In this document: positions 2,976 through 58,434 of the stretch, in pieces
Layout of the letters: each line of letters begins with the position of its first letter
Numbering within the stretch: the first letter of the stretch is position 1
Assembly (NCBI GenBank): GCA_047967505.1
Contig: CM106538.1
From: Dipteris shenzhenensis
Lineage: Eukaryota
Strand: one strand, 5' to 3'
Length of the DNA stretch: 64,000 nucleotides
Made by a program: the position numbers and the translations under genes
The notes under the pieces: model-generated
Databases searched by the model: none
What the model was told of the DNA's origin: nothing
What the model saw: only the letters and a program-made list of their open reading frames with translations

Positions 2976-3008
<33 letters not shown>

Positions 3009-3059
3009 GAGATACACATTTCTAGAGGTAGTGGCATTAGTCATTTGATAAACCCCTCG

Positions 3060-3102
<43 letters not shown>

Positions 3103-26404: not shown

Positions 26405-26447
<43 letters not shown>

Positions 26448-35400: not shown

Positions 35401-38400
35401 CAGATGTGGGCTCGTGGATTGTTGGAGGCGATTTCAACAATCTTGAGTTTGTAGAGGATAAGTAGGGGGGACCTCTTTCTTGGAGATGCTGGCAGCAGAG
35501 AGGAGCATCTTGGAGCAGTTTGTTTTTGCGATCAGCGGCAGGGACCCCTAGTGGGAGGCAGAGTTTATTAGGATTCTAGGCAGCCTCCACTTCTCCTTTG
35601 GGCAGAGGACATGCAACGGATTACGCGAGCATTGGACTGGTTCCATGTTGGGGACTGGGCTCTGCACAGAGGGGGATCCATTGGCATCTTAGCAAGTACC
35701 ATGATGTCGGATCGTTCTCCGATTATATTTCACCTTGAGCAGTCCCGCTCGGATCTTCCCCAGAAGGGGATCCGTATTCTAGACAGCTTGCTTCAGGAGG
35801 CAGAGGTCCAGCACTCCATAGCAGCAGTATGGTAGCAGCCGGAGGGAGGACCTTCAGCGGCTTGGGCAGCGTGGGTAGTAGAGGGGATCTAGAGGAGTAG
35901 TGCAAAGCTTAAGTGCACTCAGGAGGAGACTTGCCCTGCAGGAGAGGGAGAGAACTCTGAGAAGGGATCTGGCCTCCGAAGAGCGCCTCAGAGAGGAGAA
36001 GACTGATCTCAGTGGCTCAACGAGAGAGATGAGTCTGTGAGGCTGATATGGAGGTGCGTAGGGCCGAGTTCTCGTATCACTCTTCCCAGCAGGGTGATAG
36101 GATGACTCAACAGTTTTCCAGCTTAACGGGCCACCCTCAACAAGGACGCAGCTGCAGCGACTGAGAGATGCAAAGGGACAGATGCATCCAGACCCCCAAT
36201 AGATTTTGGAGATGACCACGGAGTTCTACAGGCAGTCGTTTCAGGCCCATGCTTCCCTTGTGGCCAGGGAGGCAGTGTGGGAGGAGGTTCAAGTGGTGGT
36301 CTCTCCGAGCCTGAACAGATGCTTAGAGGCCCCTTTCATAGAGGAGGAGCTCTAGGAGGCCCTCAGGGCCCTTCCTCCTTAGAAGTGCCCGAAAGAGGAT
36401 GGCTTGACTCCGACTTTCTTTTGTTTCTTGTGGGAGCATATCCGCACTCTGCTCCGGTGGGCGTGCCAGGAGAGTTTTGATACAGGTTCTCTCCCACAGT
36501 CCTTGAGTTGGGGTTGGATCTGCTTGCTCCGAAAAGGGGGGGGCAGGTCAGACATTCCACAATGGAGGCCGGTTATCCTATTCGACACCGCATACAAGAT
36601 CTTAGCCAAGGTCTTGAGTTTGTGATTGAGGCCCCACCTTCCAAATATCATTCATCACGACACAAGGATTGGCTTTGTTCAGGAACACAGATCTTGTACA
36701 TTTTTACCTTATTGGAGGCAGTGGATTGGGAAAGAGAGGAGGCTAAGCCTCTCACTGTGTCACGAGGGCGTGAGTTTTAATGCTCGCATGTGGCCTCGAC
36801 CCCGGGAATCAAGTGGCGAGGTCACGGGATGGGGTGTGCAAGCGGGATGGGGTGTGCAAGTTTCCCCCTAGAAAATTGTGCCTTGGGGGCAAATGCAAGC
36901 TCTAGGGCCAAGAGGGGCCCAAAGAACCTGTAAACTACTCGGTGCTTTCTATCAATTCAGACAACAGATTTTGCAGAGGCGTTTAAGAGATTGCAATTAA
37001 GTTGGAATTAAGACTTATACAGCTTAAACACAAAGTGACATCATTGGAAATTGCAATATGATTGAGGGGTCAAGACGGCCCCCCCCCCTTATCCAAGCTC
37101 ACTTTATTCTTGAAAATGGAGATACAAGACCAAGGTGCAATGCACCATCCAAACTGATGAACTCAGTGAAAGCCTAGGACCTAGATACAAGACTCAAGAG
37201 TACAAGGTAGACAACAGAAAGGAGGAATCCAAGCTCAGGTTTCAACTCTTGGCTTACCCAATCCACAAGGAAGAAGCGTGCAACAATCACCACTTACATC
37301 CAACGCTAGAGGCAAGCGCTAGTTTCTAGAAAGATCGTAGAAACAACATGAAATAGTGCTGTAAATGATATAAACTTGACAATACAGACTTCTTTCTTGA
37401 CTTGACCCTTTTGTAGATGAAGTCCTTGATGCCTCTGAAGCTCCCTTAGGTGAGGAGAGTGTGGAAATGGGGCTGGAATGAGAACAGCTCAGAAAAACAG
37501 CCTGTAGGCTAGAGAGAGAAAGCCTCTACTGAGTGATAGCTGTAGAGAGAGAGTGCCAATGCTGATCCCAAGGGAGGGGATGTAAGAGAGGAGCTGCTGC
37601 TGTTCCAGAGGTGCGGAGAGAGGCAGATTTCTGCAAGGGGAAGGGGCTGGAACAGTAGAGAGAGAAATTTTGTAGTAGAGAGAGAAAGACTGCAGGAGAG
37701 AGAAAGGGGCTGTGGCTGCTCCAGGCTAGGAGAAGGAGAGAGGATGCTGCTGCTGTTCGAGAATGCTGAGGTGAGAGAATGGCCTGGGGAGAAGTTGGCT
37801 GCAACCAAGCAGTTGGAGAGGTCAACCAAAAGGAGGGAGAAGAAAAGTGATGAATTTTCTTCATGTAGGGAATGAAGGGGAGAGGCCTTCTTTTATAGGC
37901 TCAGTCCCCCCCCGCAGCCCAGAGTGGAAGGTGGACACTTGTCCCAGATTTTTTGGTGGGCTGCAGTCCCAAAGAGGACAGCCCACAACCTGCCCCAAAT
38001 CTACCAGATTTGGGGCCAGACACTTGGCTTGCATGCCCTGCCACTTGCCATGCATGCTGCCACATGTGGTACAGGTGGAATGACCTGCCAGCTCAGATTC
38101 CATGTGGCAATTTGCCACGTGTCACTCCCAAAAACCCTAAAATTTCAAAGTTGTCAGAATTCAATTATGATCGCACCCACGGGTCCCTAACAGCTTGGAC
38201 TATCTACTGACTTACTCTAAGGTCATATTGAGCCATACTGAGCTCATTTGTTTGCCGTCTTTTCTTGTATCTCCATTACTCTTGGCATGCTGCCAGGCCC
38301 ACACCCAAAGCGCAGGGAACATTCTCTTGAATGGTTCCTAGGTCAGTATGCAATCTGTGCAATTGATTGGTTCCATATTTAGGTACTTAGGTGGGGTGTG

Positions 38401-41400
38401 GTTTCCAGATGTCTCTCTCAAAGAGAGGCCATCACTCTTGTGGGTTACTAATGCCCATAACCCTAAGCAAGGGGATCAACCCTCAAATGCTAGACCTAGT
38501 CCCCATTGACCGTAACTGAACAGTAGGAAAACATTTCATTTCTTAATAAGCATACTATTGAAAAACAAAAAGAATTATTACCAAGCAAGTGGATACATGT
38601 TGTTGAAGCAGGATGACATTCCCTCTGTCTTTCATTCAGTTGTCCTCAACTGAAATGCTTCCTCATAAGCATCCTGGATTTTAGGACACTCCTGAAATGT
38701 AACTCTGTCCATCCATTGGGCATCGGTGGATGGAAGCCCTCTGAACTTCAAAAGGTACATCTTGCGAGTCGTGCCTCGACGTCCCGTAGTGAAGTTATGC
38801 AGAATAATCTGCTCTGGGATCAACAAGATCTCAATGTCCTCTACTTCAGGTGCATCGTCCAGTGTGGGCTCTTGAGGTGGTTCCCCAATGAAGGGTTTCA
38901 CCAAGCTTACGTGGAAGACATCGTGGATCTTCCAATGCTCTGGAAGTCTCAATCGGACTGAGACATCATTTATTACCTGCAACACTTGAAAAGGACCATA
39001 ATATCGAAAGGATAGCTTAAAGTAGATGCGCTTTTTGCCCACTTTGATTTTGAACCGGGCTTTCTCAAATTTCAATAAGACCCATTGGCCTTCTTTCACT
39101 GGTGCAAACACCCTCCGTCTTTTATTTGTAGCTGCTCTTTGTTTCTCCTGTGCCTTTTGAATGGCTGCTCGCGAACCGTGGCATAAGCAGAGTCATAATC
39201 CTCCATGAATTGATCAGCGGCGGCAAATATTTTCTCTTTTGTTTGCATGACTGGAGTTGGTAAAGATCTACCATATAGAATTTTGAAAGGAGCTTTTCCA
39301 ATGGAGGAATGAATTGTGTTATTATAAGCAAACTCCACAAGAAGAAGGAATTTCTCCCAAAAGGTTTGTTGGTCATGCACATAAAATTTGAGCAAATCCA
39401 AGAGTGTACTATTCGTAACTTCAGTTTGGCCATCCGTTTGAGGATGAAAAGATGAGGAGAAACTTAGAAGAGTTCCAAGGTTCTCAAACAAAGCCTGCCA
39501 GAAGTTACTAGTGAACTTTGAGTCTCTATCTGATACTATAGACTTGGGCATGCCGTGGTGCCTAAAGATGTGTCTAATAAATAAATTGGCAGCTTCAGGT
39601 GCCTTGAGATTCTTTCTGCAAGGAATGAAGTGGGCTTGCTTGCTGAATCGATCTACGATCACCCAACTCATGTCATGATTTTGATTGGTCCTGGGAATTC
39701 CTGTAATGAAGTCCATGGTGATGTGTTCCCATGGTCTCTCACGAATGGGTAGGGGCTGAAGTAAACCCTTGGGTTTTCCTCTCTCATACTTAGCTTTTTG
39801 ACATGCGAGACAAGCTGAAATGTAGGCAGCAGTGTCCTTTTTCATGTCAGGCCAGTAGAAAAATTTATCCATGGCTGAAAAAGTGGCCACAATACCCCTG
39901 TGACCAACATAGGGTGTGTTATGGCTTTCCTCCACTTTAGATCTAAGCTGCTTTGTGATACATAGTTTGTTCTCCATGAATAAATAGCCATCCCTGATGT
40001 GGTAGGCATGATGGGTGCCTCCATCTTTCAGATGTGCCCATGGCTGAATTAAATCAGCATCTCCCTCATAGAATTCTTTGAGGGCTGCTAGCTCATCATG
40101 ATAGGGAACTGAAATATGGTGAAGCCGTGGTCTACGAGAAAGGGCATCAGCCACTACATTCTCTTTTCCAGGAGTATATTGTATCTGAAAATGAAATGAT
40201 TGCAGAAAGGTAGACCATTTCATATGTCTCTCTCTGATCAGAGGTTGAGTTAGAAAATATTGAAGACTTTCATGATCAGTTTTTACAAGAAAATCTATTC
40301 CTAAAAGATAGTGTTTCCAAAGTTTAAGAGCATGAATTACAGCTAAGAGTTCTTTTTCATACATATCATATTGAAGTTCAGCATCTCTTAGCCGTTGGCT
40401 TTCAAAGGCCACAACATGACCATCCTGGGTAAGAGAAGCCCCAAGGCAATCGCCACTGGCATCAACTGCTACTAGGAATGGTTTCCTTAAGTCACGAATG
40501 ATAAGTACAGGAGCTATAGTCAGGGCATGCTTTAGAGCATTAAAAGAGTCCTTTTCTTTTTGGGTCCATCTGAACTTCAGATTTTTCTTAGTGAGATCAT
40601 GTAGAGGGGCTACAAGTTCAGCAAAATGCCAAATAAACCTTCGGTAATATGAGCATAGGCCTAGAAAAGACCTTACCTCATGGGCATTCTTCAGGTCCAG
40701 GCCACTCTACAACTGTCTGTATCTTGGTTGGGTCCATACGGACACCTTCTCGTGATATAATGTGACCAAGATAGTGAATCTATGTATAGGCATTTGCGGC
40801 CTTCTATTCGACTAAGAAAACATGAGTGATTGTGACTAAGTGCGAGTTTTATTACCAAGAGGGTTAACTGCGGTTAACCAGAGAACTACAGAGCTGACTA
40901 CGGTCAGAGAGTGTTGACTTCAGTCAACAAGACTTGGCATGCGCCAAGAGGGTTAACCCTGGTTAGCCAAGATGTGCCAACTTCGGTTGGAGAGACTTGG
41001 CTATAATTAAGGCGCCTCGACCCTTGGTCAAAGCTCCTTAATTATAATCAAGAGTGTTGACTCCGGTCAACCAGAGAAAAAATATATATATTTATATTTA
41101 TATATATATATTTGTTTAGATGTGCACATGTGTTTAGTGGGGACGCCCACCGTGACGAGAGTTAGTCCACAGTGGGTGCCATGGTGGTGCGCTTTAATTA
41201 ATTGTTGCAGGTACTAGGAAGAATTATTTTTCCTAAGCGTAACGGGAGCCTGACAAGCATCTAGGAGGCGGTTCGTGTGACCGAGAGCTTTGAAGACTCC
41301 AGAATGGCCCTTAGTGGCATGTAATAGGACTTAGTTTAGATTTTAGACAAGTGGCATGTTGCCAATTTGAATTGAGCTTGAAGCTCTTGTAATAAAGTGG

Positions 41401-44400
41401 ATTTTTTTTTCACGTTTTAAAAATGTAGAGGTTACCAGACAGCTCTACGCTGAACTTCTGTAACAGATTTTCTCTCATGAATAAAAACCTTCGGGGGGGT
41501 CCAGCCCGACGTTTTGTCCTGGGCCCTAGTGCATCTTCAGAGAGAGGGAGTGAGGGAGAGCTTATGAAAGCACAATTACTGTCTTTTATGAGTGGTAATG
41601 GCTGTCTTTCAGTAGCGAGTCGGTTTTATTGGTATCAGAGCCTGGTCTCATAGTTTTCCTAAACTGTGACGATCCAAGTGCAAGAGAGTTTCTCGAGATG
41701 ATAAGCGACGCTTGGGAGAGTAGCATGATTTTGATCGGTGGTTAGCTGAAGAGCCCTGCAGGCGAAGAAGCGAGATGCAGTTTTGCACCCAACGTATTAG
41801 CAATGAGCATCTACCTTGCTGAAGGGGTATGCGTGCCATATTAGTAAGCTATTGCGTGAAGAGGGCAAGCAAGGAAAAGTAAGGCGTAGGTGTTTGTCTA
41901 TCTTGAGCGTTAATTGGGCGTCGTGATTACGGCAAATACCGTGCATATCACAAGCGTTGGGCCTGTGCCTACTCATTGGGATTATGCTACGGGAAGCCTC
42001 TTGCAAGCACCGGCAATTACCACTCAGAGGGAGACGCCCTCACGCGTAGTGACTTTTTCATTGCCTCCGCCAGCGGTATCAGAAGATGACTACAAATCTG
42101 CACTTCGCTTAGTTCCGATGGCGTGAACTATTCTCCAAGCCCTGTGTGAAAATCTGTAGACGAATGGCGGAGACACTGACGGGTGCTGACGGACAAATGG
42201 AGGCGGTGCGACGCGCGACGCGCATCAGTCAGCCAAGGTTTGGAACCTTAGGCTGATGTGGCACAGGAGGACACGTGGCAGATAGGCAGCGCTGACGTGG
42301 CAGCCAGCAGGTCCAGACGTGCAACGATGACGTGGCAGCCAGCAGGTCCACACGTGCGATGATGACGTGGCAGCACATGCAGCTGACGTGGCTTTGACAC
42401 GTGGTAGGTGCTGATGTGGCAGGCTGACAGAAAGCTGATGTGGCAGATGCTGACGTGGCACTGACATGTGGCAAACCAGTGGTTAAATTAACTCTGGTTA
42501 GTTAACCCTGGTCAGAGGTCTAGTTAACTTGACCCAACCGGACCAGTCTGGTCACTGTAACTAGACTGTGACCAGTCCAGTTAGTCCAGTTGCAAACTAA
42601 CCAGACCAAAACCAGTCAGTCTGGTTAGAGTAACTAGCCAGTTACTCCATCTGGTTACTGTTCTTTTCAAAAAAAAAAAAAAAGAACAGTTGCAGAGATT
42701 GTTTCTGCTAGCAATTTTCACCTACCTGTCAGACTTTTACTGTCAGAAAAGCAGCAGAAAAACAGAGAAAACAGAGAAAACAGAGAAAGTAGAAAAGCAG
42801 CAGAAAAGCAGCAGAAAATCAGAGAAATCAGAGATTTGCAGAAAAAGAGTATGCATGCCTTTGAGCAGTGAAAAGAGGGGAAAACAGATGCCTTTTGAAG
42901 CCATCTGCAGCAGCCAGAAAAGGGCAATATAGTTGTTGATGCTTTGGCAACTGTGTGGGTATATGCCTTGAATTGACAGCCAGTACTGGCATAGATTGTG
43001 AATGCAAAACACCTCTTGTTGAGGTATTTTTCTGTTGGAAAAGCAAAGGTAGTTGTGCATCAGTTACCTACACGGTGTGTGAAATCTGCAGATCCTAGAA
43101 TATGGATCAATCACCTATCCAGTGGGATTCACAAGATAGGGATGTACATCCAAGACAGAGAAGTGTGCCGCAAACTCAACAAGAATTTGAACAGATGGTA
43201 CGCACTCGTATACAAGAGATGGAAAATCTCAAAAGGGATCCAAGGGCTCAGCATTTGTTTCAAGCAGAAGCTATGCCTAATCCAGTATATGACGTGCCAA
43301 TGCCAGAGGCACACTCTCGTGTACAGCCTGAGAAAGAGAGATCTCATAGGAGACGGTCCCATAGTAAAAAGAGATCGAGGCATCATCACCGATCTCCTAG
43401 TCCATCACCGTCTACCTCGAGTTCGACTTCTGTGTCTTCTTCTTCCTTATCAGATAAACCATCCAGGAAAAGAAGAAAACACAAGAAGTCTAGGAAGAGA
43501 AAGACGTCCAAAGAGACCAAGGAATTTAAAGAGGGAGGAAAATCTGTCAAGTTTATGACCTACAATGGACAGTATGGTCATACAGACAAAGCATTGCAGT
43601 TCATCAGACAGTTTGATGCTGCCTTCGGTACAGAAAAATTTTTAGAATCCTCCAAGTTAAGAATGGTCAGTTTGCACTTGACAGCAACAGCTAGTGCATG
43701 GTGGAGTGCACAGACCACAGATGGGTCAGCCCCAAGGAAGTGGAAGGACTTCAAGAAAGCCCTCTACCAGCAGTTTATGCCTAAACAGTTTAGAGACCAT
43801 GTTCTTCAAGATTGGGACAGCTTGCATATGGATGCAGGAGATACAGTGGATGTGTACAACCAAAAGTTTTGGGATGCTTATTTGCAGGTTGCACCTTTCA
43901 AAAAGATCTCCAAAGGCACCCAAATGAGAAAGTACAGAGCAGGTCTCACTCCAAGAATTCAGGCAGTAGTGAATGCTTTGGGGGCAAAGAATATTCAAGA
44001 CCTTATGCATTCAGCTTCAGTAGCTAGCCTTGTGCCGCTACAAGATCCATCTACAGTGCCATCCTTGCATGCAAGACGTGTTGATAAAAAGAAAACTGAT
44101 TTTTCAAAATCAGAAAAGAAAGAGTACCCCAAGGCTGAAAAGAAAGGGTTTCAGCCTCAGAAGCCGAGGGGTACTCAGTTTTCAAGAACTTGTAAGGGCA
44201 AATCTCTATTCACCCCTGAACAGATAGCGGAATTCCGTAGAGATGGGAAACGCTTCAGGTGCGGCAAAGAGGGGCATGTGGCTGCCCAGTGCCCAGAAAA
44301 GCCTCCAACTTCGAAGGGAAAAGAGGCAGAGAAGCCACGAGGACCGCAAAAGCCAATGGCGGGGGGAATTCCTGACATACTGGGTCATGCTTTGAACCCA

Positions 44401-47400
44401 GAAGAACAAGAATTGCTGCTATCATGGGGCAAAGTTAGAGACCAGCAAGCGCTAATTTTATTTGATTCAGGGGCTACTGATAATTTCATATCAGAGGATC
44501 TAGCCCTGAGGCTGGGAATAAAAACGGAGGAGTTGGGTAGGGCTTTGGATGCCGATCAAATGTTCTGTGGGAATCCTGTGCCAGTTACTCCCTTGATAGG
44601 GAAGCTCCGTCTTTATGTTCAGAGTTATGTGGATCAGGAAGACTTCTTCATTTCTCCACTAAAACATTATGATGTAGTTTTGGGAATGCCTTGGTTTCAC
44701 CGCAAGGCAGTGAAGTTGACTCTTCCTGAAAGAGTGCTGGAGTTTGTGCATAGGGGAAAAAATCAGCGTTTAATTGCCAGGAATAAAGGGGACACTATCC
44801 CCATTGTATCTGATGTTTCATGTGGTAAAGCAATAAAGTGTGCAATTTCTGCGTACATGGTTTTTGTAAAAGAAAAAGGGAATGAAATGCATGCTGAAAT
44901 GAATGATGCAGACAAAGATAAGTTTCAGTTTCTTGTAAACTTTAAAGATTGCGTTTCTGATGCTTTGCCAGGGGAGTTACCCCCAGAGAGACCAGAAGAT
45001 CATCAGATAGAGTTAATGCCTGGTAGTGAGCCACCAAACAGACCACCTTATAGAGTCAGTGCGACTCAGAGAGAGGAGATTATGGCTCAGGTACAGGACT
45101 TACTATCCAAAGGGTTGATTCAGCCCAGCTCGTCTCCTTTTTGTTCTCCTGTACTATTAGTACAGAAGAAAGATGGTTCATTCCGTATGTGCGTCGATTA
45201 TCGCGCACTGAACAAAATGACCATCAAGAATAGATTCCCTATTCCGCGCATTGATGATGTCTTGGATCAATTAAATGGAGCTTCAGTTTTCAGCAGGATA
45301 GACTTAAATAGTGGGTATCACCAAGTGAGGATACAGCCTCAGGATGTGCACAAGACAGCATTCCGCACTACATTTGGGTTGTATGAATACTTAGTGATGC
45401 CTTTTGGGTTGACAAATGCTCCAGCCACATTCAATAGAATGATGGATCGTATCTTCCGAAAGTACAGGCATTTTACGGGTACTTTCTTTGATGATATCTT
45501 AGTTTTTTCTAAGACAGAAGAAGAGCATAGAGAACATCTTGCTATAGTGTTTCAAGAGCTGAGAAATCATCAGCTCTACGCAAACAGCAAGAAAAGTGAA
45601 TTCTTCTTGGAAGAAATCCACTATCTGGGGCATGTAATATCCAAGAATGGGATACAAATGGATCCAGCGAAGATCCGTGCCATTCAGGAATGGCCAGAGC
45701 TGAAAACTGTGCATGAAGTTCGAAGTTTCCTAGGCCTGTGTTCTTACTACAGAAGGTTTATCCGACATTTTGCTGATATTGCAGCTCCATTACATGACCT
45801 TACTAAGAAAAATGCAGCCTTCACATGGGGATTATCACAGAAGAAAGTATTCAATACACTCAAGGAGAAGTTGACTACAGAGCCTATTCTTGTAGTCCCG
45901 GATCTGTATCAGTCTTTTGATGTTGATTGCGATGCTTGTGGAGAATGTGTTGGGGCTGCATTGCATCAGAATGGTCATGTAGTAGCCTATGAAAGCAGGA
46001 GACTTCGGGATGCAGAAAGATATCTAGGAATCTATGAGAAAGAGTTATTGGCTGTAATTCATGCCATCCATACATGGAAGCACTATCTTTTGGGTGCAGA
46101 TTTTATTGTCAAGACAGATCACCAAAGTCTGAGATACTTTTTGACTCAGACCAAGCTTTCCGAGAAGCATATGAAATGGGCAAACATGCTCTCAATGTAT
46201 CATTTTCAGATTGTCCATACTCCAGGAATTCGGAACAGAGTGGCAGATGCTTTGTCCCGAAGACCCCAGGTCAATAATGTGACTATTGCTTATCATCAGG
46301 ACCTGGGAGGCATGAGGGACCAATATGCTCATGATTCAGATTTTGGTGAAATTTTACAGCAAATGCAAGAGGGGCAATCCACCAATCACTATTCCCTGAA
46401 AGATGGGTATTTAATGAAAGATGATTGCCTATGCATCACCCAGGAGATGAGGAAAAAGATTTTGGGGGAATGCCATGCACCTCCCTATGCTGGACCTAGA
46501 GGAATTACAGCAACAACTCTAGCACTAGAGAGGTATTTCTTTTGGCCAGGGATGCGGAAAGATATACATCAGTTTGTTACTAAATGCCTTACGTGTCAGA
46601 AAGTGAAGTATGATAGACGGAAGGCACCTGGCCTACTTATGCCTCTTCCCGTGCCTCAGGCACCATGGGAAAGTATTACAATGGACTTTATTTTTGATTT
46701 GCCGAGATCAAAGTCAGGGAATGATGGGATTTGGACTATCATTGATAGATTCAGCAAGCAAGCTCATTTCATTCCGGTTCGCAAAACCATAAAGGCAGAT
46801 CATATGGCTAAGCTTTTCATGGCACAAATTTTTAAACATCATGGTATGCCTAAGTCGATTGTTAGTGATCGAGATCCCAGAATGACCAATCTATTCTAGT
46901 AAGCCCACGCCTACTTGCAATTTGGGAGCTTTAAGAGCAAGGGATGTAGTGGAGCTTCTTCTTGCCCATGTCCTTGGCCCATAGAATGCATGAAAGAGCT
47001 TTTCCAACTCTAGCTAGTCACTTTTTCGGAAATGCTAGATTGATGCTACGAAACATGGGGACGAATTTGAATTTTTCTTCTTCTTTCCATCCCCAGACAG
47101 ATGGTCAAAGTGAAGTAGCAAATTCTACAATTTTGGATATGCTGAAATGCTACGTGGGTGACCAAAGTTCAGACTGGGAAAAGTATCTACCCTTAGTAGA
47201 GTTTGCTTACAATAATACTGTACATAGCTCTACAGGGAAAGCCCCTTTTGAGGTCATATATGGGAAGGTGATTTTGCCACCTATATTGAGGACCAAAGAT
47301 GAAATATTTGCAGCTAATCAGTTTGTGAGAGACCTCCAGACAGCTTACAGCCAAGTCCGGACAGCAATTGAAAGGTCTCAAGAGAAACATAAAAGAGCTG

Positions 47401-50400
47401 CAGATAAGCATAGGAGACAGTTAGATCTCAAGGAAGGGGATTGGGTACTTTTGAGGTTTGAAAAAGCGAGGCTCCGCAAGTTTAAAGGCAAACAGAAAGT
47501 GTATGCAAAGTTATCTCCCAGATACTATGGCCCTTTCAAGGTTATAGAAAGAACAAATGAGGTTGCATACAGATTAGCATTGCCAGAGCATTGGAGGATT
47601 CACAATGCATTCCATGTGAGTCTTCTAAAGAAATTCCAGGGACCAGAGCCTACAGAACCAGTATCAGAGGATCCACCAGAAGTAGATGAGCTGGAGGAAG
47701 TCCTTCAGCCAAAGCAAATTGTGTATCATACTGTACGTAAAGGCCCTCAGGGTAAGTAATTTTACAGGTATCTTGTAAAATTCAAGAATTATACGGCATT
47801 AGATGCCAAGTGGATGGACGAAGACTCAGAGGCACCGCTCACAGGGAGATGATCCCCATTCATGAGGAGTTTGATCAGGGTGTGGCATAGAGTTTCGGGG
47901 GCACTCATATGGGCTAGCCCTTCCTACAGGGAGGAGTTCGAGAGATAGCCGATTCTTTGGCACCCAGATGTTAGAGATGCGGATAGACGAATGTTAGGGC
48001 AAAGGACACACATTGGATGGGCACAGTGGGACAATGGGCTAGCATGATCCTTTGGTTCTTAGAGACAGCCCCCTAGGGATATAGAGGCCAGGGCACGGGC
48101 ACTCTTTGACCTGAGAGGAGCAGGTATATGGATGGTTGAGATTGACTCAGTGATCCTTGAGTCGTGGTGGAAGGGGTTGTGCAGCCCCTGGACTTCCAAC
48201 TACTGGGACGGCCAGTTCTCTCAGATGAGGACTCCTCTCAGGGTCCGGTTCTTTAGAGAGCATCTGGGATCCATCCGATGCAAGTGTTATATGGTGGGAC
48301 CAAAGGCCTTCTACAAGTAGAGTCGGAGAGGGATTCAGAGGAGTTAGCAGCCTTGGAGGATCTAGAGTGGTAACGGATCAGGATTGTTGGCCGATTGGGC
48401 AGAGTGTGGCATATCAATCTGACCATCATCTTAGCAAGTCCAGAGGGAGCAGTTTGGCATCTATGGCTGTGGGAGGGCAGCCCTCTTAGGGACATTCAGT
48501 GGAATCTAAGAGAGTGGTTTTGGCCTTTTGGTTGGGACACTCAGACAGCAGAGAGGAGGTGCCCTTCTTTTCTTACACGACCCGCATCGGCAGTTACATT
48601 CAGTTGGAGGCAGCAGCATGGAACCCCTCGAGGGAGCGATACTGGTTGGAGTAGGAGGTTTCCAGGGAGGTGGTCAGCTGCTTCTGGCCACGACTATGGT
48701 CAAGTCTGAGACCACGGAAGATCTCTTACTTCTTTTGGATGGTGGTTGAGCCTACCCATCGGTCCCTCGTTGTTGGAACAAATGCAGGTGGATTGGCAGA
48801 TGTGCTCGTTGTACGGAAGGCTTGCTTGAGGTGATCCCACATTGCTTATGGAGCTGTCATGTGGCACAGAGCATTTGGACAACAGCTTTCCGGATTGTGG
48901 CTAGGACGCAAAGGATGCGGAGAGATTTCACGTGGGGGATGGAGGCGTGGCTGACAGAGGGAGGCTCTGCTTTCTGTGTTGATCCCATCTCACCAGCTTA
49001 CAGGATCCATGGTGAGCAGGTCTTCTAGATTGAGTTCCTCGATTACCGTGGTCCCGCACTTGCTCGCAGCTTTCACCGGAGCAAGTTCTTTAAGAATTCT
49101 CATCCAATTTGTGTCTAGTTTCCGTGCTTTATTGATTTATCTAATGAACAATATCCTCTATGCTATACTTGGATGATAGCTTTGTTAAAAATGGGGAGAG
49201 GATGAGAGACAAGATCTGAGGCACGAACTGATGTTGATAGATTGTGTTATCACAGCAAGTACATAGCCTCTTTTATAGGCTGGGCAAGCCTTATCTTCCC
49301 ACACAGACACCTCATAGATGAGGTCACACACAAGAGAATCTAGATCCTATAATCTAGGGGAGGAATCACACCTACCACATGAGGTGGCACAAGTTGCCTC
49401 AAGACTCTTCACACTCACACAACTGTAGGACACTCCTAGGACTCTAGGACCACACACACTAGGACTCCGATTCGAACAAACCCCCCTTCGGAGCTAGGGT
49501 GAGAAACTATGACATCATCCAGGCTGTGCATCCCAGGCAATCTCAGAGGCTAACAGCTGAGCATAATTCAGAGGTTGAACCAAGCACTCTCATGGCTTAG
49601 GTGTCAACGTGATCAGAGACTCAAATCTGAGCATGGATGCATGACCAACTCATAGGTCTAGGGAGTACACCAACATCCTGGAACTCGGCCAAGCTTGATA
49701 AAGGAAAGACATAACAACCCCCCTGTCTCCTAACTGGGTACATGGAAATAAGTGGAGCCTTTTATAGGACAAGGCACACAAAATGACAAATTATTACATC
49801 ATTTTAGGGGGACTACCCAAGGCAGAGTACCTAACACACATGACTCTAGAAAGCCCACTCTTCATCTATCACCTCATGGAGGGATAGACCAGAAACAGCA
49901 GCAGTGCAGGCCTGTTCCTCAGGTCCAGAAGGTGTAGCTTCATCGTCTTCGTCCTCGCTCTGCTCCGCAACCTGATTGGCATGTTCTTTGGCTTGTACCT
50001 TTGCCATCTTCTTGAACCAACGATCCTCTGGATGGCCAAGCTTTTGACAGTAATTACATTTAAGAGGGTTTCCTTTCTTCTTGGGCTTATTCTTGAGAAA
50101 GAATGCTTTGCCAGACTCAAAGGAAGATTCTGCTTTCTCTGTAAGCCTACGGTCCTCATCAATGAGATGAGCTACCATATCCTTAAAGCTCATATTGCGG
50201 CTGACTCTTAGGACAGCAAGGATCTCATTGTACTTGGAAAAGTCTTCAATACTTGAGAGAAGTACAGCAACTTGATCATCATCTTCAACAATGGCTCGGA
50301 TGGCAGATAATTGTTGGAGAATTGACCCAAGATTGCTCAAGTGTTCATTGAGGGTTTCAGTTTCCTTCATCTTGAGCTTGAAGAGTTTTTGTTTGAGAAA

Positions 50401-53400
50401 TACTTTGGAATTCTTGATCTTATTTCCAAACAAATTCTCTAATTTTTCCCACACGTCATTTGCAGTCTTATCAAAATCCACATGGTGGATAAGGTTGTCA
50501 GCTAAAGCTAGGCCAATGATAGCCATTGCTTTGGCCAATGATAGCCATTGCTTTATCATTTTGGTTCTCCCACCAACTGATTCTAGCATCATCACTTTGG
50601 GGTTTTGGCTCCTTGCCATTGGTGATATTCCATATGCCTTCTCGCATAAGAAGAAGCCGGAGTTTCGTCTGCCAAGTTGGGAAATTGCTCCCTGAGAATT
50701 TCTCGATGAACAAGGGGTTTTTTATGCTATCCATTGGTGGGAAGGTCTTAGTTGTTATTACAACTAGTGTCTAAATCCCTTACAATGTTTACTCAAATTT
50801 TGCAAAAAAAAGGCCCAAATTTCACATGGTAGAAGCTTTAATTATGCCAAAGGAAGACACAGGACAGAAAAGCCCTAAATTTTTGGGTTAGGGTTGCTGC
50901 AAAATTAGGGTTTGCAGAAAATTGGGGCTTTTCAAAATTTCCTAGAGCATAGTGTTCTAGCAATACTAGGGAAGCTTCAGACCATAAAAGCCCCAACAAA
51001 TTCACCCAAAATGAGGCAAAATTCTTGAAAAGCGCAATTTAGGGTTTTGGGCTCAGAAATGGGCTGGAACAAGCCGCTCTTTAGGTCGTCATGGAGCAAA
51101 AGTGCTAGGCTTCAAGGTCGGTCTGAATTCCTTCCAAATGTGGTGGCGATTTTGGAACTGATGACAGCTTGAACAGTAAGAAAAACGAGCTGGAATCAGT
51201 TCGTTTTTGTTCCCTGAAGCACCCTCCTCCAAAATAGGGTCGATTAATCAGCAAAAACGGGCAGCTTCATATGGCGACAGTAGCAGCAAAAATCACCATT
51301 TGGAGGCCAAAAACGTGCTGGAGATTGCGCAGATCAGGGCCGGAAGGAGGAGACTTCAACTGAAGCGGCCCTCTGACAGCAACGTGGAGATGACGCAAGA
51401 GTGGCCCAGCGGAGGAGAGAGGTAGCGGGTAGAGGAGCTAGCAGGAAAGAGGTAGCATCAGCGTGGGTAGGATTACGAGGGATGCGTGAGCAGAATTCAA
51501 GGGAGGCGTGAGCAGACTGCGAGGGAGGACGGGCAGAATGGTGCAGCATCAGGGAAGATAGCAGGCAGAACTGGAACGGCCTGCTGGTCAGCAACGTAGA
51601 CATGGCGACGTGCGGTAAATGTTATCGCAGAGACATGGCAGGAAAATCTTGCGTGATGAGGCAAGGCTCAGTCAAGGAAGACCTGCTCTGATACCAACTG
51701 TTAAAAATGGGGAGAGGGTGAGAGACAAGATCTGAGGCACGAACTGATGTTGATAGATTGTATCATAGCAAGTACATAGCCTCTTTTATAGGCTGGGCAA
51801 GCCTTATCTTCCCACACAGACACCTCATAGATGAGGTCACACACAAGAGAATCTAGATCCTATAATCCAGGGGAGGAATCACACCTACCACATGAGGTGG
51901 CACAAGTTGCCTCAAGACTCTTCACACTCACACAACTGTAGGACACTCCTAGGACTCTAGGACCACACACACTAGGACTCCGATTCCAACAAGCTTGGTT
52001 TGACCATCCGTGATTGAATCCTAAAGGTCTAGGTAGTTGAATGTTTAAGAATGTGTAAGTAGTGTTCATAACAAGGTTTTGAAACGTTTTTTAATGTGGA
52101 AGAATTTGACATCTTACCAAGGGATGTTACACAAAAGCTTACACAATAGATTTATCTCAATATGTTTGTGAAATATGTGCATCTTCTTTTGGTTTTTTGT
52201 TTTGTTTTTGGGACACTACACGTGATGTGTCCAACCTTCCTTGCAGCCCTAATCACATATTCATTAGCAAAGCAGGCTATGTTCCGCTTGCCCTACCACA
52301 CCTTTGCCAAATCTTGTTGTCATTAAAAACGCCTTCAAGCTCTCATAAACTATAACATCTCTTTAATGCTTGTTACTTTTGGAGGTGACACTTTATTTAG
52401 AAAATTACTCATTATTTGTAACATAAAAAATTTACACATCACACTTAAACATATATAAAAACACTGGTTAACACCATTTAAACATATATAGTAACAACTG
52501 TACAGGCAAGCCTCCCCCTAAATACTAGTCTCGCTCTTGCTAGAGTTAAGGAATATAGTAAGGGAGAAACTGGCTTGGGATGGGTAGGGAGAGTGCAAGC
52601 AAGTTTCCCAATGCTGGATCGCTTGACCTCAGTGAACAACATTGGAAAAGCTAGTGATGGTCTTCTCTCTTTGGTAGGTGATTTAGTTGGGTCTAGCTCG
52701 GTAAATCAAAACAAAAAACCTAGAAGAAACTTATATAGAGAAAGGTTGAGGTTAAACATGAATAATCTTCATGATTTTGGGGAAGGTAACATTTCTTTAA
52801 GTCTTTATTAGTTAGCACTCACTAAGACATCTTAGAAACAAGCACACACCATTATGTTGTCTATAAGGGACATAGTAGTAATATGCTTTATGTAGGACAA
52901 ACCTATCGGACGGCTTTTATTTGTTTTCAAGAACATGTTAGGGTAGCTAGAAAAGCTCATAGGAAGAATTCCTTGATTGAATTCAAAACCCTTATATGAT
53001 GCAATGGCAAAATCTGGTTTCAAATCTTTTCGTTGCTTTCCTGTTGAGCATATGATGACAACTTTACACAAGAGATTTTAATTTGGAAGGAAAATCAACT
53101 CATCGTAAGAATAAAAGAACCCTATGATGTGGAGAACTCATATCAAGCCCTTTAACATTCCTATGTACGAACATAGTCATATACCTACTCTTGTATAAAA
53201 ATCTAAAGTTATGTTACGGGATTGTCCTAGCTCTCCTGCAATCTTAGATGTTGATCGTGATTTGCTTCCCTCACTTTCTCTTCCTCTTCCTCGTCCTTCA
53301 GTTCCTTTAACTTCCTCAGTTCCAAGAGTTTATCCTCTCAAGACTATAAAAGAGGACTTCGTTACCTAGACAGACTAATGTTTCTGGGAGCTTTTGAAAA

Positions 53401-56400
53401 TATAATGTCCAAGTTCTTTTTAAACACACACCTTGGAAAACTTCTCTTTTGAGGACTTGAATCTAAATAAACTCCATTATATACAACTTAAAACTTCGTT
53501 GATCACTTCTTAAAACTAAAAGCTTCCTTTCAAAGCAAAAAACTCTATCTATATAAGGAACTCTTGATTTCTATTTTTAATTCTCCTTCTCTTGACAAGG
53601 TAGTTGAACTCAATTTTGAAGTCTCTTGAAGTAATGGATCCTCTTCTTGATTATGTGAGAAGAATTTGGAAGCATCCAGTAGTAGCTTGGAAGTATGTAA
53701 AAACTTTAGGATAAAAGGCTTTCAACTATGAAGAGAGAGGCAAAAGGCTTTCAAAGCATTCAAAACCGTCTATACTTAGAGAACCTTGTTGTTGTAAAAG
53801 TAAGAGATTCCAATGCTTTATTCACATGATACTTCAATTTGCTTTCTTGTAACTTAAGAGACCTTTTCATGAAAGGCATGAAATTTTGATCATACTCTTG
53901 GAAAGAGTCTTACCTTTTAAAAGCTAATGATAAGGGAATCTCAAAGTTTGCTTTGCAAATAGAAGAAAGTTTAGGAGTTCAAAATATCTTATCAAAATGG
54001 AAAGGGAAGACTTTGAAGAGAGTTGCTTTGAAACTAGAATAAATCCCTTCATTGAATTGCTCAAAGCAAAGTAACCATCTTTCTAAAGAAGATAAAACGC
54101 TTCGTCAAAAAAATTCCATAGGAAATTTGTCATATCAAATGTTCTAATAACTTTGTCTTTATTTACAAAAGTTTTACTTAGATTGTCTTTTGAGAGAAGT
54201 GAACTCGCCTGCCAAAACTTACGCTCCTTAGTTTCTCAAAAGGATCTGATCTCAAAACACCAGAGTTTTTGCAAGTCTTCAAGGTTTGTTTGCAATCCAA
54301 GTATTCCTTTTCCCTTTGTCCTCCTTGGAGTTTCACAAAACTCCAAAAAAGCCAAGATTTATTATAGCTGCTTGTGAGACTACTTTAACAGATGTCTCTA
54401 AATGGATAAGCTACAGCTTTTTTTTTTTGGGCAAAGAAAGGAACCTTCTATTAATGCTTGAAAAACTTCATACAAAGCAACAGCCCCGAAGGTGCTGAGT
54501 ATGGAAGAAACCAATAAAGACTGAAAGAAGAAAACCAGCCTATTCCAGATAAACCCATCTCACTACTTAGGGAATCTCTGGTATAGGGGCTAACAGCCAA
54601 GTGGGGGGACTATACAACCAGCGAATCCCTCGCAGAGTGAATATGTAGAAAACTCCTGCAGGCCAAGTCTTGCAGAAACGTGCGCGCCTCGCGACAGCCG
54701 CCCTAGAGCCTGGGGTCCCACGCTCCTAGGTGGAGTGCAGGGTATATATGATATCCTACCAAATGTCGATCAAGGTAGCCGAGGGTGGAACCTGATGCTC
54801 ACCCATCACCAGACTACAGCGAGCAACCCAAATATTCCACGCCGTGATGCTGGCACTACCTTCCACAGGCTATCCTCCAGAAGGGGAATGAGAATCCCGG
54901 CTATCAAGAGGGACTGCCTCATGGAGCTTTATCCTCTGAATGCTTTGACCTTGTATCCGGAAAGCTGGAGAGACCTTATCAATCTGGAACACGTGACCTC
55001 CCTCAGTCAACTAGGCCACCATCCCCCAGGTTTAGTCCCTTTGAAGGGAGTTCATGCGTGTCATAATCCTAAGGGATCCCATCCAGATCCTCTCTGCATT
55101 ATGACCACTCCAAAGACAGTGAGGGATCATCTCCAGAACATTAGCAGAGCAACAGTGACACTGCCCCTGCACTCGCATCTGCTCCAACCACGGGCCTATG
55201 GGCAAGCCTCCATGGGGAGCCAGCTCTAAAAAGTAGGAGATCTTCCTCAACCGCAAATTGGACCATAGGCGCGTCCAAAACTTGGAACATGCCTCTTGAG
55301 GCACCCTCTGGGTCACCCAATGCCTCTCCCTCGAAGGGGTCCATGTCAAAAAGTCCATCTGAAGCCTCCTGCCAATTCGAGTGGTATAGGAAAATTGTCC
55401 ACCTGCTCAGTAAGTCCGATCCTGGAAGGCCAAAATCACTCACCCGGATCCCATTGTACCTCCCTCAGGGGCCTACCTTCCCAAAGCCAGAGGCGCTATC
55501 TGGGGTCATCCTGCTCTTGGATGCTGGGAGGATCAATGTGCCACTCCTTCCCCACTTAGCCCACAACTGTGATCATCTGCCAATGAATCCCATCCAGACT
55601 CCCGTTCATCTCTGGGTCTCTCTCAGTGAGTGCTTGAAGTAGGCCTCTAGGCCCTACACGGAAGAAACCAGGTTGCTTGCTGCCTTGCTGAATCATCATC
55701 CTCAAAGGGACCCTAGTCCGAGAAAATGACCCAACCAAACTGCTGTCCATCCACATGTTAAGTCCCTCCCAACTGCTGAAAAGCATTTTTAAGGGCATCC
55801 CATTCGGTAAATGTTTATTATCTTGCTGCATGCAGTAGTACACGGTGGTCCCATTCAGACCAAACGGGAATAGGTCAAACAAGTCATTGTCCATCGTGAC
55901 ACAATTCACCATGCACACAGATTCAAACTCCATAACATGGGTGTTAGGAACCAGGGTTCTTCTCTTTCTTACCCTCGTAGTGGGGTAAATGCACCTCAAT
56001 CATCACATGACGCCGGGGAAAATCCACCATATTACCAATTTGGTCAGCTTGAATTCCTGTGTCGTAGAAGTACAAACTCTGTTACCGTAGGTGTTTGTGC
56101 CATTTTGCTGGCTGATTGCATTGCGATCGCACTCTAGTCTAGTCAGTAGAGATCAACAGAGATATTCTTCGTCCTAGGGATGACACTTTGTCATCAACTC
56201 CCAATTCCTCCTTTGGTGTATTAGCTGATCTTCCCCAGTAGGATCACCACAAAGTGTTGGTAATAAACTGCCACTTAGATCCTAGATCTAACAAGGAACA
56301 ATGTTTGTGTACACACACAGAATTGAAAGAATGATTGCAGCATCATCAACATATTAAGAACAAATAAATTTCCTAGAACTAAATTATAACGACAATTCAG

Positions 56401-58434
56401 AGTATTAATATGGAAAGAGTAACTTTATTCATGAGGATATAGCACGTAGCTCTCTTCTGTAAACTATAGTCTATTATCTTAGAGTCCGAATTCAGAAATA
56501 TTAATTTTCATGATGATAGGGGACATAGCTTGCTGCTGTAGACAATAACTTTCTCTCATACACGGACATACACTACACACCATATCCTTATTGTTTCCTT
56601 GCTTGCAAATATACACCCAAATGGCCTTTTACATGCATTCTAGGGACTGAACACATTCCTCCATTTCTCCCACTAGACCATTTGTTACAGCGTTTCATAT
56701 ATAAAGAATAATGCAATTTCAAATCTAAATCCTCTCATTAGCAATTGCGACAGGTACGACCTTTAGAACGAGCATGACACTTCTTACACTCCCAAGGTTC
56801 ATACCTAGGGCAAATGTTGACTTTGCGATCAACAAGATTTATTGCCCCAACAGGCAGAGAAACATCCCAGCCCAAATACCCCTTGATACAACGATTAAAT
56901 GCTAGACTCAATTTGATGACACATCCGGAAGTGAAGGTAAAAGAGTGATCCCTTTCCCTCTATTGCATACGTGCTAGCAACACATTTTGTTCTCAAGGAA
57001 CACATGACAAAACCTGTGAAACTTAATGTATATCTGAATGACTGGTTTCTAGGTTTACTAAGAGCTCAAAAGGATTTTTAACTGCAGCATCATTTTCAGA
57101 GTGGCTTCAATTTGATCTAAGGTGTTGGCAAGATGAGTGGGGTAGATTTTGCTTCGCTAATGGAAAGTTTCAGTCAAGGTTGCGAGGAAGCTTATGTGCC
57201 TTGGACATGAGGTCCCACTTGCGCAAAGTCCATCGGCATGGACACAATTTAGGAGGATTTATCTAATTGGAATAAATGCTAGGCTCCGTGGGGAACTTGC
57301 TGCAAGAGTTGTTGCACAACAGTCTGTTGGTTGCTTCTATGCTTGGGTTGGCAGCATGGTCAGAAGCAGAACAAAGATTTTGTGTGAGACGTTCAAAGAG
57401 GAATCTCGTAGTGTATACACATTTCTGTCCAAAAGACTTTCAATTCAACAGGAACTTCAGTATGTGCAGGCCCTAGGAAATGTGGTTCTGAATTTCTTAA
57501 TGACTTCATCAGTTATATTAAACCCTATTGAGAAAAATAACATTAATGTCACTTGAGGAACTATGACATGGAAGCGCACTACAATGATGTGCAACAACCA
57601 CCCTCATTGGTCTAAAAGTTTTTAGTCAAGGGGGGCATAAATATGTATACCACCACACAAATCGACCACATATTGTTGGGTTGAGCTTATTTTGTGTTTT
57701 GCAGGCTCAAGCCTTTGCTGAAGCAACACGCTTTCCGGGAGGTAAAAATATGTCTGATTGCTAAGATAATTTAAAATTTTCTTGGCTGAGTAATAAATTA
57801 GCTCCAAAACTTCATAAAAAAACAAGTAGTTTCATGCATTAAAATTCATCCTAATGATATTTACTTTTAGATTAAAAAACTGAGATGTTTTCTGCACAAG
57901 GCAATTCATAGTTTGAGGATTCACTTGGTCCTTTTGTATATTGTATATTTCTTTCAGAGGTTTATGCTGATCCAAGTCACTCAACCCACGACGCATTGGA
58001 GTTTGTCTCTGGGATTGGCTCGACAATTTCTCCAACGGTGCTAATCCAAGATAATTGTTTTTAAAAAATAGGATTCTGCACAAATTCTCATTCTTTGCTA
58101 CTTGATGTCTTTTGGTCCTTTTTCCTTTCAAAAGGATTGAATTCTGTTCTTACACTTCCTAAATTCATGGAGAAGCTAGGGCACCTCAACTTGCCCCAAA
58201 AGGAGTGTGAGAATCTGTAAGGGCAATGTGTACTATGATAAATTATGATGGTGTGTCCTGAAGCATGACCTAACAACTAGGCATGCTTTTTACTAGATCT
58301 AGCTACTGTAGAAAGTTAACGCTGACATTTCCTTTGTAACAGACCGGTATGAGGATTCTATCTGCCCTTTATGAAGGCTATCGACAAGATTGGGGCCTCT
58401 CATTTCAGAAGGATACAGTCTCTAAAGGTGGCTG
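18796..58434 (+). CDS. AAED1: Chloroplast thioredoxin-like / AhpC-TSA antioxidant protein (AAED1/PRXL2C family), exons 1-7; 3' exon(s) not found in window
   Basis: Spliced translation: transit-peptide-like N-terminus, then [39 protein letters not shown]...[26 protein letters not shown]...[22 protein letters not shown]. All junctions are GT-AG and in phase. Confidence 0.9.
19235..19368. repeat. ~70-bp imperfect tandem duplication in intron 1
   Basis: TAATAAkGAGTGTmTACTTyTCTGAAGTAGyAACACTGAAG...GTCTGCTGTA occurs twice. Confidence 0.8.
20149..20845. repeat. ~140-bp dispersed direct repeat (about 20149-20293 and 20704-20845), origin unknown
   Basis: CTTTAAA-CTGCCTT...AACAAACCACCAGGTGCACCTTTG...ACGGTGAACC occurs in both places. 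Confidence 0.75.
20881..21890 (+). mobile_element. Truncated Ty1/copia: LTR 20881-21223, PBS-Met 21226-21237, gag start at 21842
   Basis: TG...CA LTR, TGGTATCAGAGC, and [15 protein letters not shown] followed by truncation; a partial copy of this LTR lies at ~24225-24365. Confidence 0.75.
22791..24207 (+). mobile_element. Truncated Ty1/copia: LTR 22791-23522, PBS-Met 23523-23534, gag fragment 23593-24207
   Basis: TG...CA followed by [30 protein letters not shown]...[12 protein letters not shown]...MLLEE (UBN2-type gag). Confidence 0.85.
24225..24365 (+). mobile_element. Partial LTR matching the 20881-21223 LTR
   Basis: TATTCTAGTGTCTAGTGTCTAGATTATATGAGGCTGTACTTG...TTCAGTTCTTTCCAT is shared with 20986-21122. 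Confidence 0.85.
24430..24845 (-). mobile_element. Non-LTR retrotransposon RT fragment
   Basis: [16 protein letters not shown]...[19 protein letters not shown]. Confidence 0.8.
26640..29480 (-). mobile_element. L1-type LINE ORF2 (RT and zf-RVT), 5'-truncated and decayed
   Basis: [35 protein letters not shown]...HLFLTC. Confidence 0.92.
27254..27817. mobile_element. Non-autonomous hAT-type element (564 bp) inserted in the LINE
   Basis: Perfect 8-bp TSD GCATCCCT (27246-27253 and 27818-27825), TIRs CATGGTTGT-AAG / CTTAACAACCATG, subterminal AGACACG/CGTGTCT motifs. Confidence 0.9.
30544..30679 (+). CDS. AAED1: AAED1-like exon 2
   Basis: CAG|AAGCACC...CACTTTGG|GTATTG; encodes [17 protein letters not shown]. 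Confidence 0.92.
30765..30810 (+). CDS. AAED1: AAED1-like exon 3 (CxxC motif)
   Basis: TAG|GTGCATACTATGT...CGCAAG|GTATCT; encodes [15 protein letters not shown]. Confidence 0.92.
30941..31000 (+). CDS. AAED1: AAED1-like exon 4
   Basis: CAG|GCTGAC...GAACAG|GTACAT; encodes [20 protein letters not shown]. Confidence 0.92.
31240..36757 (+). mobile_element. L1-type LINE, 5' part (ORF1, APE endonuclease, RT start)
   Basis: ORF1 zinc knuckle [14 protein letters not shown] (~33486); EN motifs WIVGGDFN and SDRSPI; RT motifs DGLTPTFF and [16 protein letters not shown]. Confidence 0.85.
32352..33292 (+). mobile_element. TRIM (941 bp): LTRs 32352-32651 and 32985-33292, 333-bp non-coding interior
   Basis: Direct repeats ending CTCCAACA, PBS-like AGGTATCAGAG, purine tract before the 3' LTR, TSD CTAAG/CCAAG; removing it rejoins the LINE ORF1 reading VCPSK|GGFWHSV. 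Confidence 0.85.
36758..40782 (-). mobile_element. Ty3/gypsy chromovirus A, 3' half (RT end, RNase H, integrase, chromodomain, PPT, 3' LTR 36758-38618)
   Basis: EIHYLGH, YEKELLA, ADALSR, HPQTDGQ, YYGPF, chromodomain YLLKFRG...QWM; PPT AAGACAGAGGGAA abuts the TGTCA LTR. Confidence 0.92.
40783..47828 (+). mobile_element. Ty3/gypsy chromovirus B: 5' LTR ~40783-41628, PBS-Met 41630-41641, gag-pol; 3' LTR missing
   Basis: TG start, TGGTATCAGAGC, long gag-pol ORF, chromodomain YLVKFKNY...AKWM, then an abrupt switch to LINE sequence. Confidence 0.93.
43102..46899 (+). CDS. Gag-Pol polyprotein (gag, zinc knuckle, aspartic protease, RT, RNase H, integrase N-part); continues disrupted to ~47825
   Basis: 1265-aa ORF with [38 protein letters not shown] and IVSDRD. 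Confidence 0.95.
47829..49075 (+). mobile_element. L1-type LINE ORF2 3' part, probable continuation of 31240-36757
   Basis: zf-RVT-like CARC...[10 protein letters not shown]; similar to the minus-strand LINE at 54418-55640. Confidence 0.75.
49183..51991 (-). mobile_element. Complete gag-only copia-type LTR element (TR-GAG-like, 2809 bp)
   Basis: Near-identical LTRs 49183-49478 and 51699-51991, perfect TSD AGCTT, PBS-Met 51685-51696, PPT 49479-49489, no pol. Confidence 0.95.
49846..50734 (-). pseudogene. Copia-type Gag (288 aa once a 22-nt duplication at 50511-50554 is removed)
   Basis: [21 protein letters not shown]...LFKLKM...CNYCQKLGH...DEEWAF*. Confidence 0.9.
52758..54417 (+). mobile_element. 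Degraded Penelope-like element with N-terminal GIY-YIG endonuclease, CxC linker and RT N-terminus (Chlamys/Naiad type)
   Basis: [28 protein letters not shown] (52853-), [38 protein letters not shown] (53781), [46 protein letters not shown]. Confidence 0.75.
54418..55640 (-). mobile_element. L1-type LINE 3' end with poly(A) tail; truncates the PLE
   Basis: T-run at 54418-54428; KFWTRLWS...[21 protein letters not shown]. Confidence 0.8.
55770..56080 (-). mobile_element. Probable Ty3/gypsy gag relic
   Basis: [11 protein letters not shown]...LFPFGLNG... followed by a DALKNAF-like motif in an adjacent frame. Confidence 0.45.
57705..57741 (+). CDS. AAED1: AAED1-like exon 5
   Basis: CAG|GCTCAA...GGAG|GTAAAA; encodes [12 protein letters not shown]. 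Confidence 0.9.
57958..58037 (+). CDS. AAED1: AAED1-like exon 6
   Basis: CAG|AGGTTTATGCTGATCCA...ACG|GTGCTA; encodes [19 protein letters not shown]. Confidence 0.92.
58343..58434 (+). CDS. AAED1: AAED1-like exon 7
   Basis: CAG|ACCGGT...GGCTG|GTAAGA; encodes [22 protein letters not shown]. Confidence 0.92.

Follow-up and report, generated by a model that had tools for sequence, protein, structure and literature searches.

A Penelope-like element remnant in a long host intron

The window analysed here is a stretch of 64,000 nucleotides of contig CM106538.1 from Dipteris shenzhenensis (assembly GCA_047967505.1). It contains a host gene on the + strand whose fourth intron is full of transposons. 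Within that intron an earlier note, made from the sequence letters alone, had placed a hidden Penelope-like element (PLE) of permuted order, with a GIY-YIG nuclease ahead of the reverse transcriptase (RT). Our analysis leaves little doubt that the locus holds a real, dead and 3'-truncated PLE of the nuclease-first Chlamys type. The remnant of its open reading frame (ORF), and the features within and next to it, are as follows.

52749..54417, + strand: Chlamys-type PLE ORF remnant, very probably, nuclease through RT motif 2 (aligned collinearly, with frameshifts, to L001 and P0023, described below)
52850..53100, + strand: GIY-YIG nuclease without CCHH motif, dead (alignment to relatives)
53101..53675, + strand: Pro/Ser-rich spacer and conserved Chlamys linker with the DYKRGLRYL block (alignment)
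53676..53886, + strand: PVVAWKY block, CxC motif (53781-53798) and GxKF motif
54137..54417, + strand: DK-type motif (KCSNN, without its Asp owing to a frameshift), then RT motifs 1-2, with an abrupt end
52482..52811, + strand: open frame of 109 codons, the last ~20 of which carry the N-terminal homology that starts at 52749 (ORF list and alignment)

Six-frame translation recovered all the motifs that had been claimed, in the claimed order, on the + strand and spread over three frames: VVY at 52856, YVGQT at 52889-52903, FQEH at 52925, KPLYDAM at 52986, PVVAWKY at 53676 and EPCCCK at 53781. Three further motifs, of 11, 11 and 10 residues, begin at 53854, 54137 and 54334. The order is thus GIY-YIG nuclease, linker, CxC, GxKF, DK-type motif and RT motifs 1-2, followed by the poly(A) end of an L1 element.

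The frameshift-aware alignment proposed as a check bore this out. Positions 52749-54408 aligned to L001, a Sphagnum-type locus, from its residue 22 onward with a score of 620 and 41% identity over 547 columns, across 14 frameshifts and 7 stops; eight shuffles of the sequence scored 41-58 and the reverse strand 42. Positions 53392-54414 scored 745 (shuffles 42-54) against P0023, a fern-type ORF of 700 amino acids and the closest relative of the window copy, with 53.5% identity over 340 columns. The RT end of the window copy, about 60 residues, is 60% identical to P0023, 56% to P0019 of Ceratopteris and 48% to the Sphagnum-type locus L007. The 109-codon frame is possibly an N-terminal extension of the family; it had no Pfam match, and tblastx of 51993-52760 against the Sphagnum-type loci gave none either.

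Relatives from Ceratopteris and Sphagnum-type contigs

A phmmer search of 1.84 billion proteins with the frame 53830-54417 (stops as X) returned three matches (best E=1.8e-18). All three carry CxC, GTKF and DKCSNN, one of them (P0003) also has RT motif A, and they map back onto 53510-54423. A word-index search with one window frame confirmed none of 491 candidates. Searching with P0003 found 15 proteins among 465 candidates, the one named being Ceratopteris richardii KP509_09G028400, and searching with P0023 found 19 among 8000 scored candidates, including eight Naiad-type proteins and P0064, a full-length Chlamys-type protein of 1047 amino acids with no stop. Long RT frames also occur in the ten members of a fern-type ENA/Logan cluster, and P0013 shares 98% identity with P0023. 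The ORF P0012 runs unbroken from the C-terminal half of the nuclease through RT motif 2. With P0023, none of two stretches from viral contigs and none of 22 from prokaryote genomes were confirmed, and an Atlas search with P0001 gave only uninformative clusters (ankyrin and others).

In a metagenome scan 338 stretches came up and 225 were confirmed; the locus counts given here use the best 80. In the near-complete L001, positions 575-3668 form one frame of 1031 codons with nuclease, linker, CxC, GTKF, DKC, RT with FVDD, and thumb. The nuclease lay upstream of the RT in 18 of the 80 loci and downstream in none, counting matches above 60% identity to the L001 nuclease; this filter removed two matches (L003 and L004), each the front of a second, diverged copy. 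No C-terminal nuclease was present in L001, L002, L007 or P0024, all of which end after the RT thumb. We assigned this multi-copy, 4.3-kb family to Sphagnum because proteins flanking the loci match that genus: of seven looked up, three equal Sphagnum magellanicum proteins letter for letter, another two share clusters with named proteins of Sphagnum (along with other bryophytes in one case), and the remaining two carry no species name. The relatives in Ceratopteris and in Sphagnum-type contigs agree with the wider range that the earlier note had foreseen for the clade.

Several side observations concern these relatives. KP509_09G028400 (P0015/P0019), which encodes a PLE RT from motif A to thumb in one frame and lacks a nuclease, carries a host-gene annotation with four protein isoforms; either a transposon was mis-annotated here or the copy is expressed and co-opted. 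In the Sphagnum-type ORF no in-frame ATG precedes the nuclease core (L001:575-870, L007:3800-4100, L031:1500-1800), for which a 5' intron or a non-AUG start is possible, and the leader of 850 nt is T-rich with an internal repeat of ~170 nt. A second, diverged subfamily at 67-76% DNA identity occurs in L003:2529-2946, L004:3963-4376, L015, L047, L059 and L077. Another copy, at L041:5490-8700, is located inside a gene of the nucleotide-rhamnose epimerase/reductase type, within its coding sequence.

The nuclease of the window copy has decayed

The four catalytic residues R, H, E and N are all present in L001, while the window copy retains H and N only. The position of the catalytic Arg (52922-52924) is a Cys codon, and a deletion of ~27 residues has removed the helix with the catalytic Glu, so the window copy is unable to cut. 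We read the loss of Arg and Glu as decay. The upstream CX2-5CxxC finger and the CCHH motif are both missing, as in Chlamys. A cysteine pair in the GIY-YIG core was found in the Naiad-type proteins P0067, P0068 and P0069, and in none of the window copy, L001, L041 and L031.

In the relatives, the domain is linked to known nucleases by several comparisons. It matched the nucleases of four Naiad-type proteins in hhalign (90%, E=1.7e-6), those four themselves matching Pfam GIY-YIG below the curated cut-off. The L041 nuclease matched a PHROG homing endonuclease at E=9.4e-4, and Atlas placed the relatives' nuclease in GIY-YIG clusters at 0.93. A sequence search of the PDB with the L001 nuclease gave a single match, by chance.

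Mobility traits of the Sphagnum-type family

The element is ~4.3 kb long, and its coverage drops toward the 5' end, revealing 5'-truncated copies. All 29 distinct 3' junctions stop at one point and have no poly(A). At the 5' boundary, a duplication of 14-20 nt (at most one mismatch) was seen in 12 of the 29; seven run off the contig and ten show none. At every one of flank positions 1 to 5, 16-17 of the 29 bases are T. The fixed 3' end, the target duplications and the 5' truncation fit target-primed reverse transcription after staggered nicks. In the available part of one in vitro study, a PLE with a C-terminal nuclease cuts AT-rich DNA on both strands (PMC11167929).

We also looked for the targets and terminal structures proposed as checks in the earlier note. 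Microsatellite targeting was not apparent, no run in the 29 downstream flanks exceeding (AT)3, nor was targeting of ribosomal DNA, since the 29 3' flanks all differ and the five loci scanned had no rRNA. The sole pseudo-long terminal repeat (pseudo-LTR) seen is in L068, where a 400-nt copy of the 3' end precedes the body inside a probable target duplication; L007 and L025 had none. A copy of the 3' end upstream in L031 was rejected as a pseudo-LTR because a separate 16-17 nt duplication, downstream of that copy, belongs to the main copy. In the window copy neither end survives. Among the five of 80 loci scanned, Rfam detected no hammerhead. Separately, the 3' untranslated region of L007 (7290-7480) has two CTGANGA hammerhead-like cores without a canonical partner, on which Rfam was silent.

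Affiliation with the Chlamys type

We assign the remnant to the Chlamys type, as had been claimed, because of its nuclease-first order, the lack of CCHH, its CxC motif and DKC rather than DKA. The CxC stands before GxKF in the window copy and its relatives. Those land-plant relatives that cover the DK motif read DKC there, not the DKA of Naiads; the window copy keeps KCSNN. In a region missing from the window copy, the relatives have an insertion in the fingers: the spacing between motifs A and B is 99 residues in P0019, P0023 and L007, against 68-87 in Naiad-type proteins.

In a tree of the RT, the window copy grouped with P0023 and Ceratopteris P0019 (SH-aLRT 95), then with the Sphagnum-type loci (99) and then with P0064 (100), while seven Naiad-type proteins were separate from this group. 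P0001, P0002, P0012, P0034, P0072 and L002 were excluded from this tree, and only the RT of P0019 was used because that protein was misaligned in the tree of the linker region. The latter, a slower search, set the land-plant rows and P0064 apart (96/96). Identities in the RT core are 74% between P0023 and Ceratopteris, 56-60% between fern and moss, 36-40% to P0064 and 25-33% to Naiad-type proteins. The window fragment is closer to the Ceratopteris protein than to the moss family.

By eye, Chlamys-1_meVir, a minimal Chlamys type from Mesostigma viride, is the best match to the nuclease, linker, GxKF and DK regions among the supplement sequences compared from PMC8557442 (first 400 residues and figure alignments), and the DYKRGLRYL block resembles the start of the Chlamys linker alignment shown there. 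The shared traits are an N-terminal GIY-YIG without CCHH or CX2-5CxxC, the linker block, CxC, GxKF, a DK motif with no fixed third residue, a long fingers insertion and dispersed, often 5'-truncated copies. Its length is similar (4.55 kb, against ~4.3 kb in the Sphagnum-type family), and the part of the source available states no target preference. Differences lie in the host, a land plant here, and in the dead, 3'-truncated state of the window copy. The Sphagnum-type copies differ further from Chlamys: most are flanked by plain target duplications, a pseudo-LTR was seen in one locus only, and no in-frame ATG stands before the nuclease.

Other known PLEs fit less well. PLE-X elements (Selaginella, Chara) share the Naiad/Chlamys clade, the CxC motif and a land-plant host, but they have no nuclease, carry a hammerhead ribozyme and in Selaginella target 28S rDNA, according to the part of the source available (PMC8557442); the window family has a nuclease, no Rfam hammerhead in five loci, and genic or unique flanks. 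Naiads of invertebrates likewise have the nuclease first, a CxC motif and an insertion in the fingers, but differ in their CCHH, upstream zinc finger and DKA, and in an RT core only 25-33% identical. Dryads (Penelope/Poseidon) of conifers are nuclease-bearing PLEs of land plants, but their nuclease is C-terminal and has CCHH.

A number of points weigh against this assignment. Searches of Pfam, NCBIfam and PHROGs with the window frames matched neither GIY-YIG nor RT, an outcome that the earlier note had listed as damaging, and less decayed land-plant relatives had no match to either family in Pfam; the other such outcome, a nuclease C-terminal to the RT in relatives, appeared in none of the 80 loci at over 60% identity to the L001 nuclease. 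The predicted nuclease structure has a predicted local distance difference test (pLDDT) score of 58; its top Foldseek match is I-TevI at E=0.57, five of the seven highest rows go to four GIY-YIG proteins, none of them significant, and the best VIA Z, 3.6, is to an unrelated protein. The RT tree was a quick search in which the window copy fills 21% of columns, the linker-region tree put it in no strongly supported small group, and both trees were built without published Chlamys sequences, to which the comparison is by eye. The frame of L001 contains two internal stops. Finally, no fern-type relative retrieved spans the nuclease, so that on the fern side the linkage of nuclease and RT is that of the window copy alone.

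Origin of the land-plant family

Chlamys was defined from green algae, Chara, Physarum and Selaginella (Craig et al. 2021, PMC8557442). In the parts of that paper available, the land-plant families are nuclease-less PLE-X only, BlastP hints of the PLE-X type are given for mosses, and ferns go unmentioned. The earlier note had cited Selaginella as a precedent, which does not hold: its members are PLE-X without a nuclease (PMC8557442, as far as available), and therefore offer no precedent for the nuclease-first architecture in land plants. The available part of a 2022 review likewise names only Dryads and nuclease-less PLEs from land plants (PMC9033089), and that of PMC11630846 adds nothing further on land-plant PLEs. 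Our literature search, with subscription journals, Repbase, Dfam and parts of the supplement outside its coverage, found no nuclease-bearing Chlamys reported in ferns or mosses. Nuclease-bearing Chlamys in a moss and a fern is a range extension because Craig et al. (2021), in the parts available, list only nuclease-less PLE-X from land plants.

The relatives in fern and peat moss suggest that the Chlamys type, described mainly from algae, also inhabits land plants. We lean, by a modest margin of belief, towards a broader proposal: seed-free land plants would hold an overlooked nuclease-bearing Chlamys lineage that came from a Mesostigma-like streptophyte ancestor, was recently mobile in at least one fern-type genome and is abundant in Sphagnum, where it sits at T-rich sites between LINE-like target duplications (LINE, long interspersed nuclear element), mostly without pseudo-LTRs. 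The alternative concerns origin only, namely horizontal transfer of Chlamys into ferns or mosses, either out of an alga or between the two plant groups. That only two land-plant hosts are named, and that the 56-60% identity of moss and fern RT cores seems to us rather high for so old a split, would suit such transfer. We nevertheless consider it unlikely, if by no means negligible: the closest described family, judged by eye in the available sequences, is from the streptophyte alga Mesostigma, and the branching of P0064, moss and fern parallels the plant tree, although the host of P0064 is not named.

Transfer from animals of a Naiad or a canonical Penelope/Poseidon element would resemble the case of the conifer Dryads, described as a horizontal acquisition from arthropods in the available parts of PMC8557442 and PMC9033089, and the RT does have Naiad-type matches at 26-31%. 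This is very improbable here, given the absence of a cysteine pair in the GIY-YIG core, DKC in place of DKA, the N-terminal nuclease and an RT core that is 25-33% identical to Naiad-type proteins, where moss-type and fern-type share 56-60%. Equally hard to credit is a chance pairing of a stray GIY-YIG fragment with an unrelated, nuclease-less PLE-X-type RT, which the many frameshifts of the window and the lack of a nuclease in the land-plant members of Craig et al. 2021 (PMC8557442, parts available) might invite, since L001 has both parts in one frame, the window aligns unbroken across nuclease, linker and RT, P0012 spans the join in one ORF and the nuclease-RT order recurs in 18 of 80 loci.

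Host gene, neighbouring transposons and history of the copy

The gene and the elements adjoining the Chlamys-type remnant are these.

18796..58434, + strand: host gene, seven exons found (18796-19015, 30544-30679, 30765-30810, 30941-31000, 57705-57741, 57958-58037 and 58343-58434), all GT-AG and spliced to one open frame
31001..57704, + strand: host intron 4, 26,704 bp, full of transposons, holding the PLE remnant in sense orientation
49183..51992, - strand: Copia element with 297-bp LTRs 97.6% identical, upstream of the PLE
54418..55999, - strand: L1-type LINE, 5'-truncated, with the poly(A) end adjoining the PLE and an approximate 5' boundary

The intronic position that had been claimed is confirmed by the GT-AG exons on either side, which join in one open frame. 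The last exon of the gene was not found within the window. Its product, presumably of the AAED1/PRXL2C type, is thioredoxin-like with a CxxC motif and has a long leader at the N-terminus; single exons gave nothing relevant in Pfam. Judged by the sequence, the host is probably a fern, the PLE fragment being nearer to Ceratopteris than to the moss family; a lycophyte, a gymnosperm or some other land plant with a large genome would be an unlikely host, although very long introns are known from gymnosperms too.

The claim that an L1 insertion cuts off the RT stands in part. The 3' end of the L1 does adjoin the RT, with a T11 run at 54418-54428 and a zf-RVT match (PF13966, E=6.6e-6), a domain that we take as a mark of plant L1; a related fragment lies at 48295-49037. 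When the rest of the RT was sought across the window, however, only the stretch at the cut itself matched, and no L1 target duplication of at least 9 nt was found. Because the RT never resumes in the window and a target duplication is missing, the L1 is not a clean interrupting insertion; it marks the cut, and a deletion is needed as well.

Further repeats were observed elsewhere in the window. Remnants of a Helitron Rep and Pif1 helicase lie upstream of the host gene (8737-13220), followed by tandem repeats of 1.2-2.5 kb at 12900-18650. Intron 4 also contains two oppositely oriented Gypsy elements (38632-47759), one with a 1266-codon gag-pol frame. More LTR pairs (86-92% identical) and LINE fragments sit in introns 1 and 4 and beyond exon 7 (20986-24390, 27738-29616, 32351-36700 and 60943-63321).

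An active copy would encode one protein of ~1030 residues, combining an N-terminal GIY-YIG nickase, a CxC linker and a telomerase-like RT with a fingers insertion. The nuclease would nick T-rich DNA on both strands, ~14-20 nt apart, as the relatives' target duplications suggest. From the fixed 3' point seen in relatives the RT would then copy the element RNA, probably nick-primed as in known PLEs, and copying that stopped early would leave the 5'-truncated copies that relatives display. The window copy inserted in sense into intron 4 and then decayed. An L1 may later have inserted directly behind RT motif 2, with the loss of 1.7-2 kb from the 3' part of the PLE either then or through a later deletion. 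The window copy is without function today, an inert fossil.

On the fern side, this fossil is nonetheless the one sequence in the analysis in which nuclease and RT are still seen linked. A nuclease-bearing Chlamys family in mosses and ferns would fill a gap, the nuclease-bearing PLEs of land plants being otherwise conifer Dryads only and the land-plant members of the nuclease-first clade having no nuclease, as far as the available parts of the sources go. Descent versus transfer within the green lineage becomes testable. The family also draws attention to a class of repeats that escapes Pfam and ends up annotated as host genes (KP509_09G028400), and its near-intact copies are material for a first biochemical test of a nuclease-first PLE.

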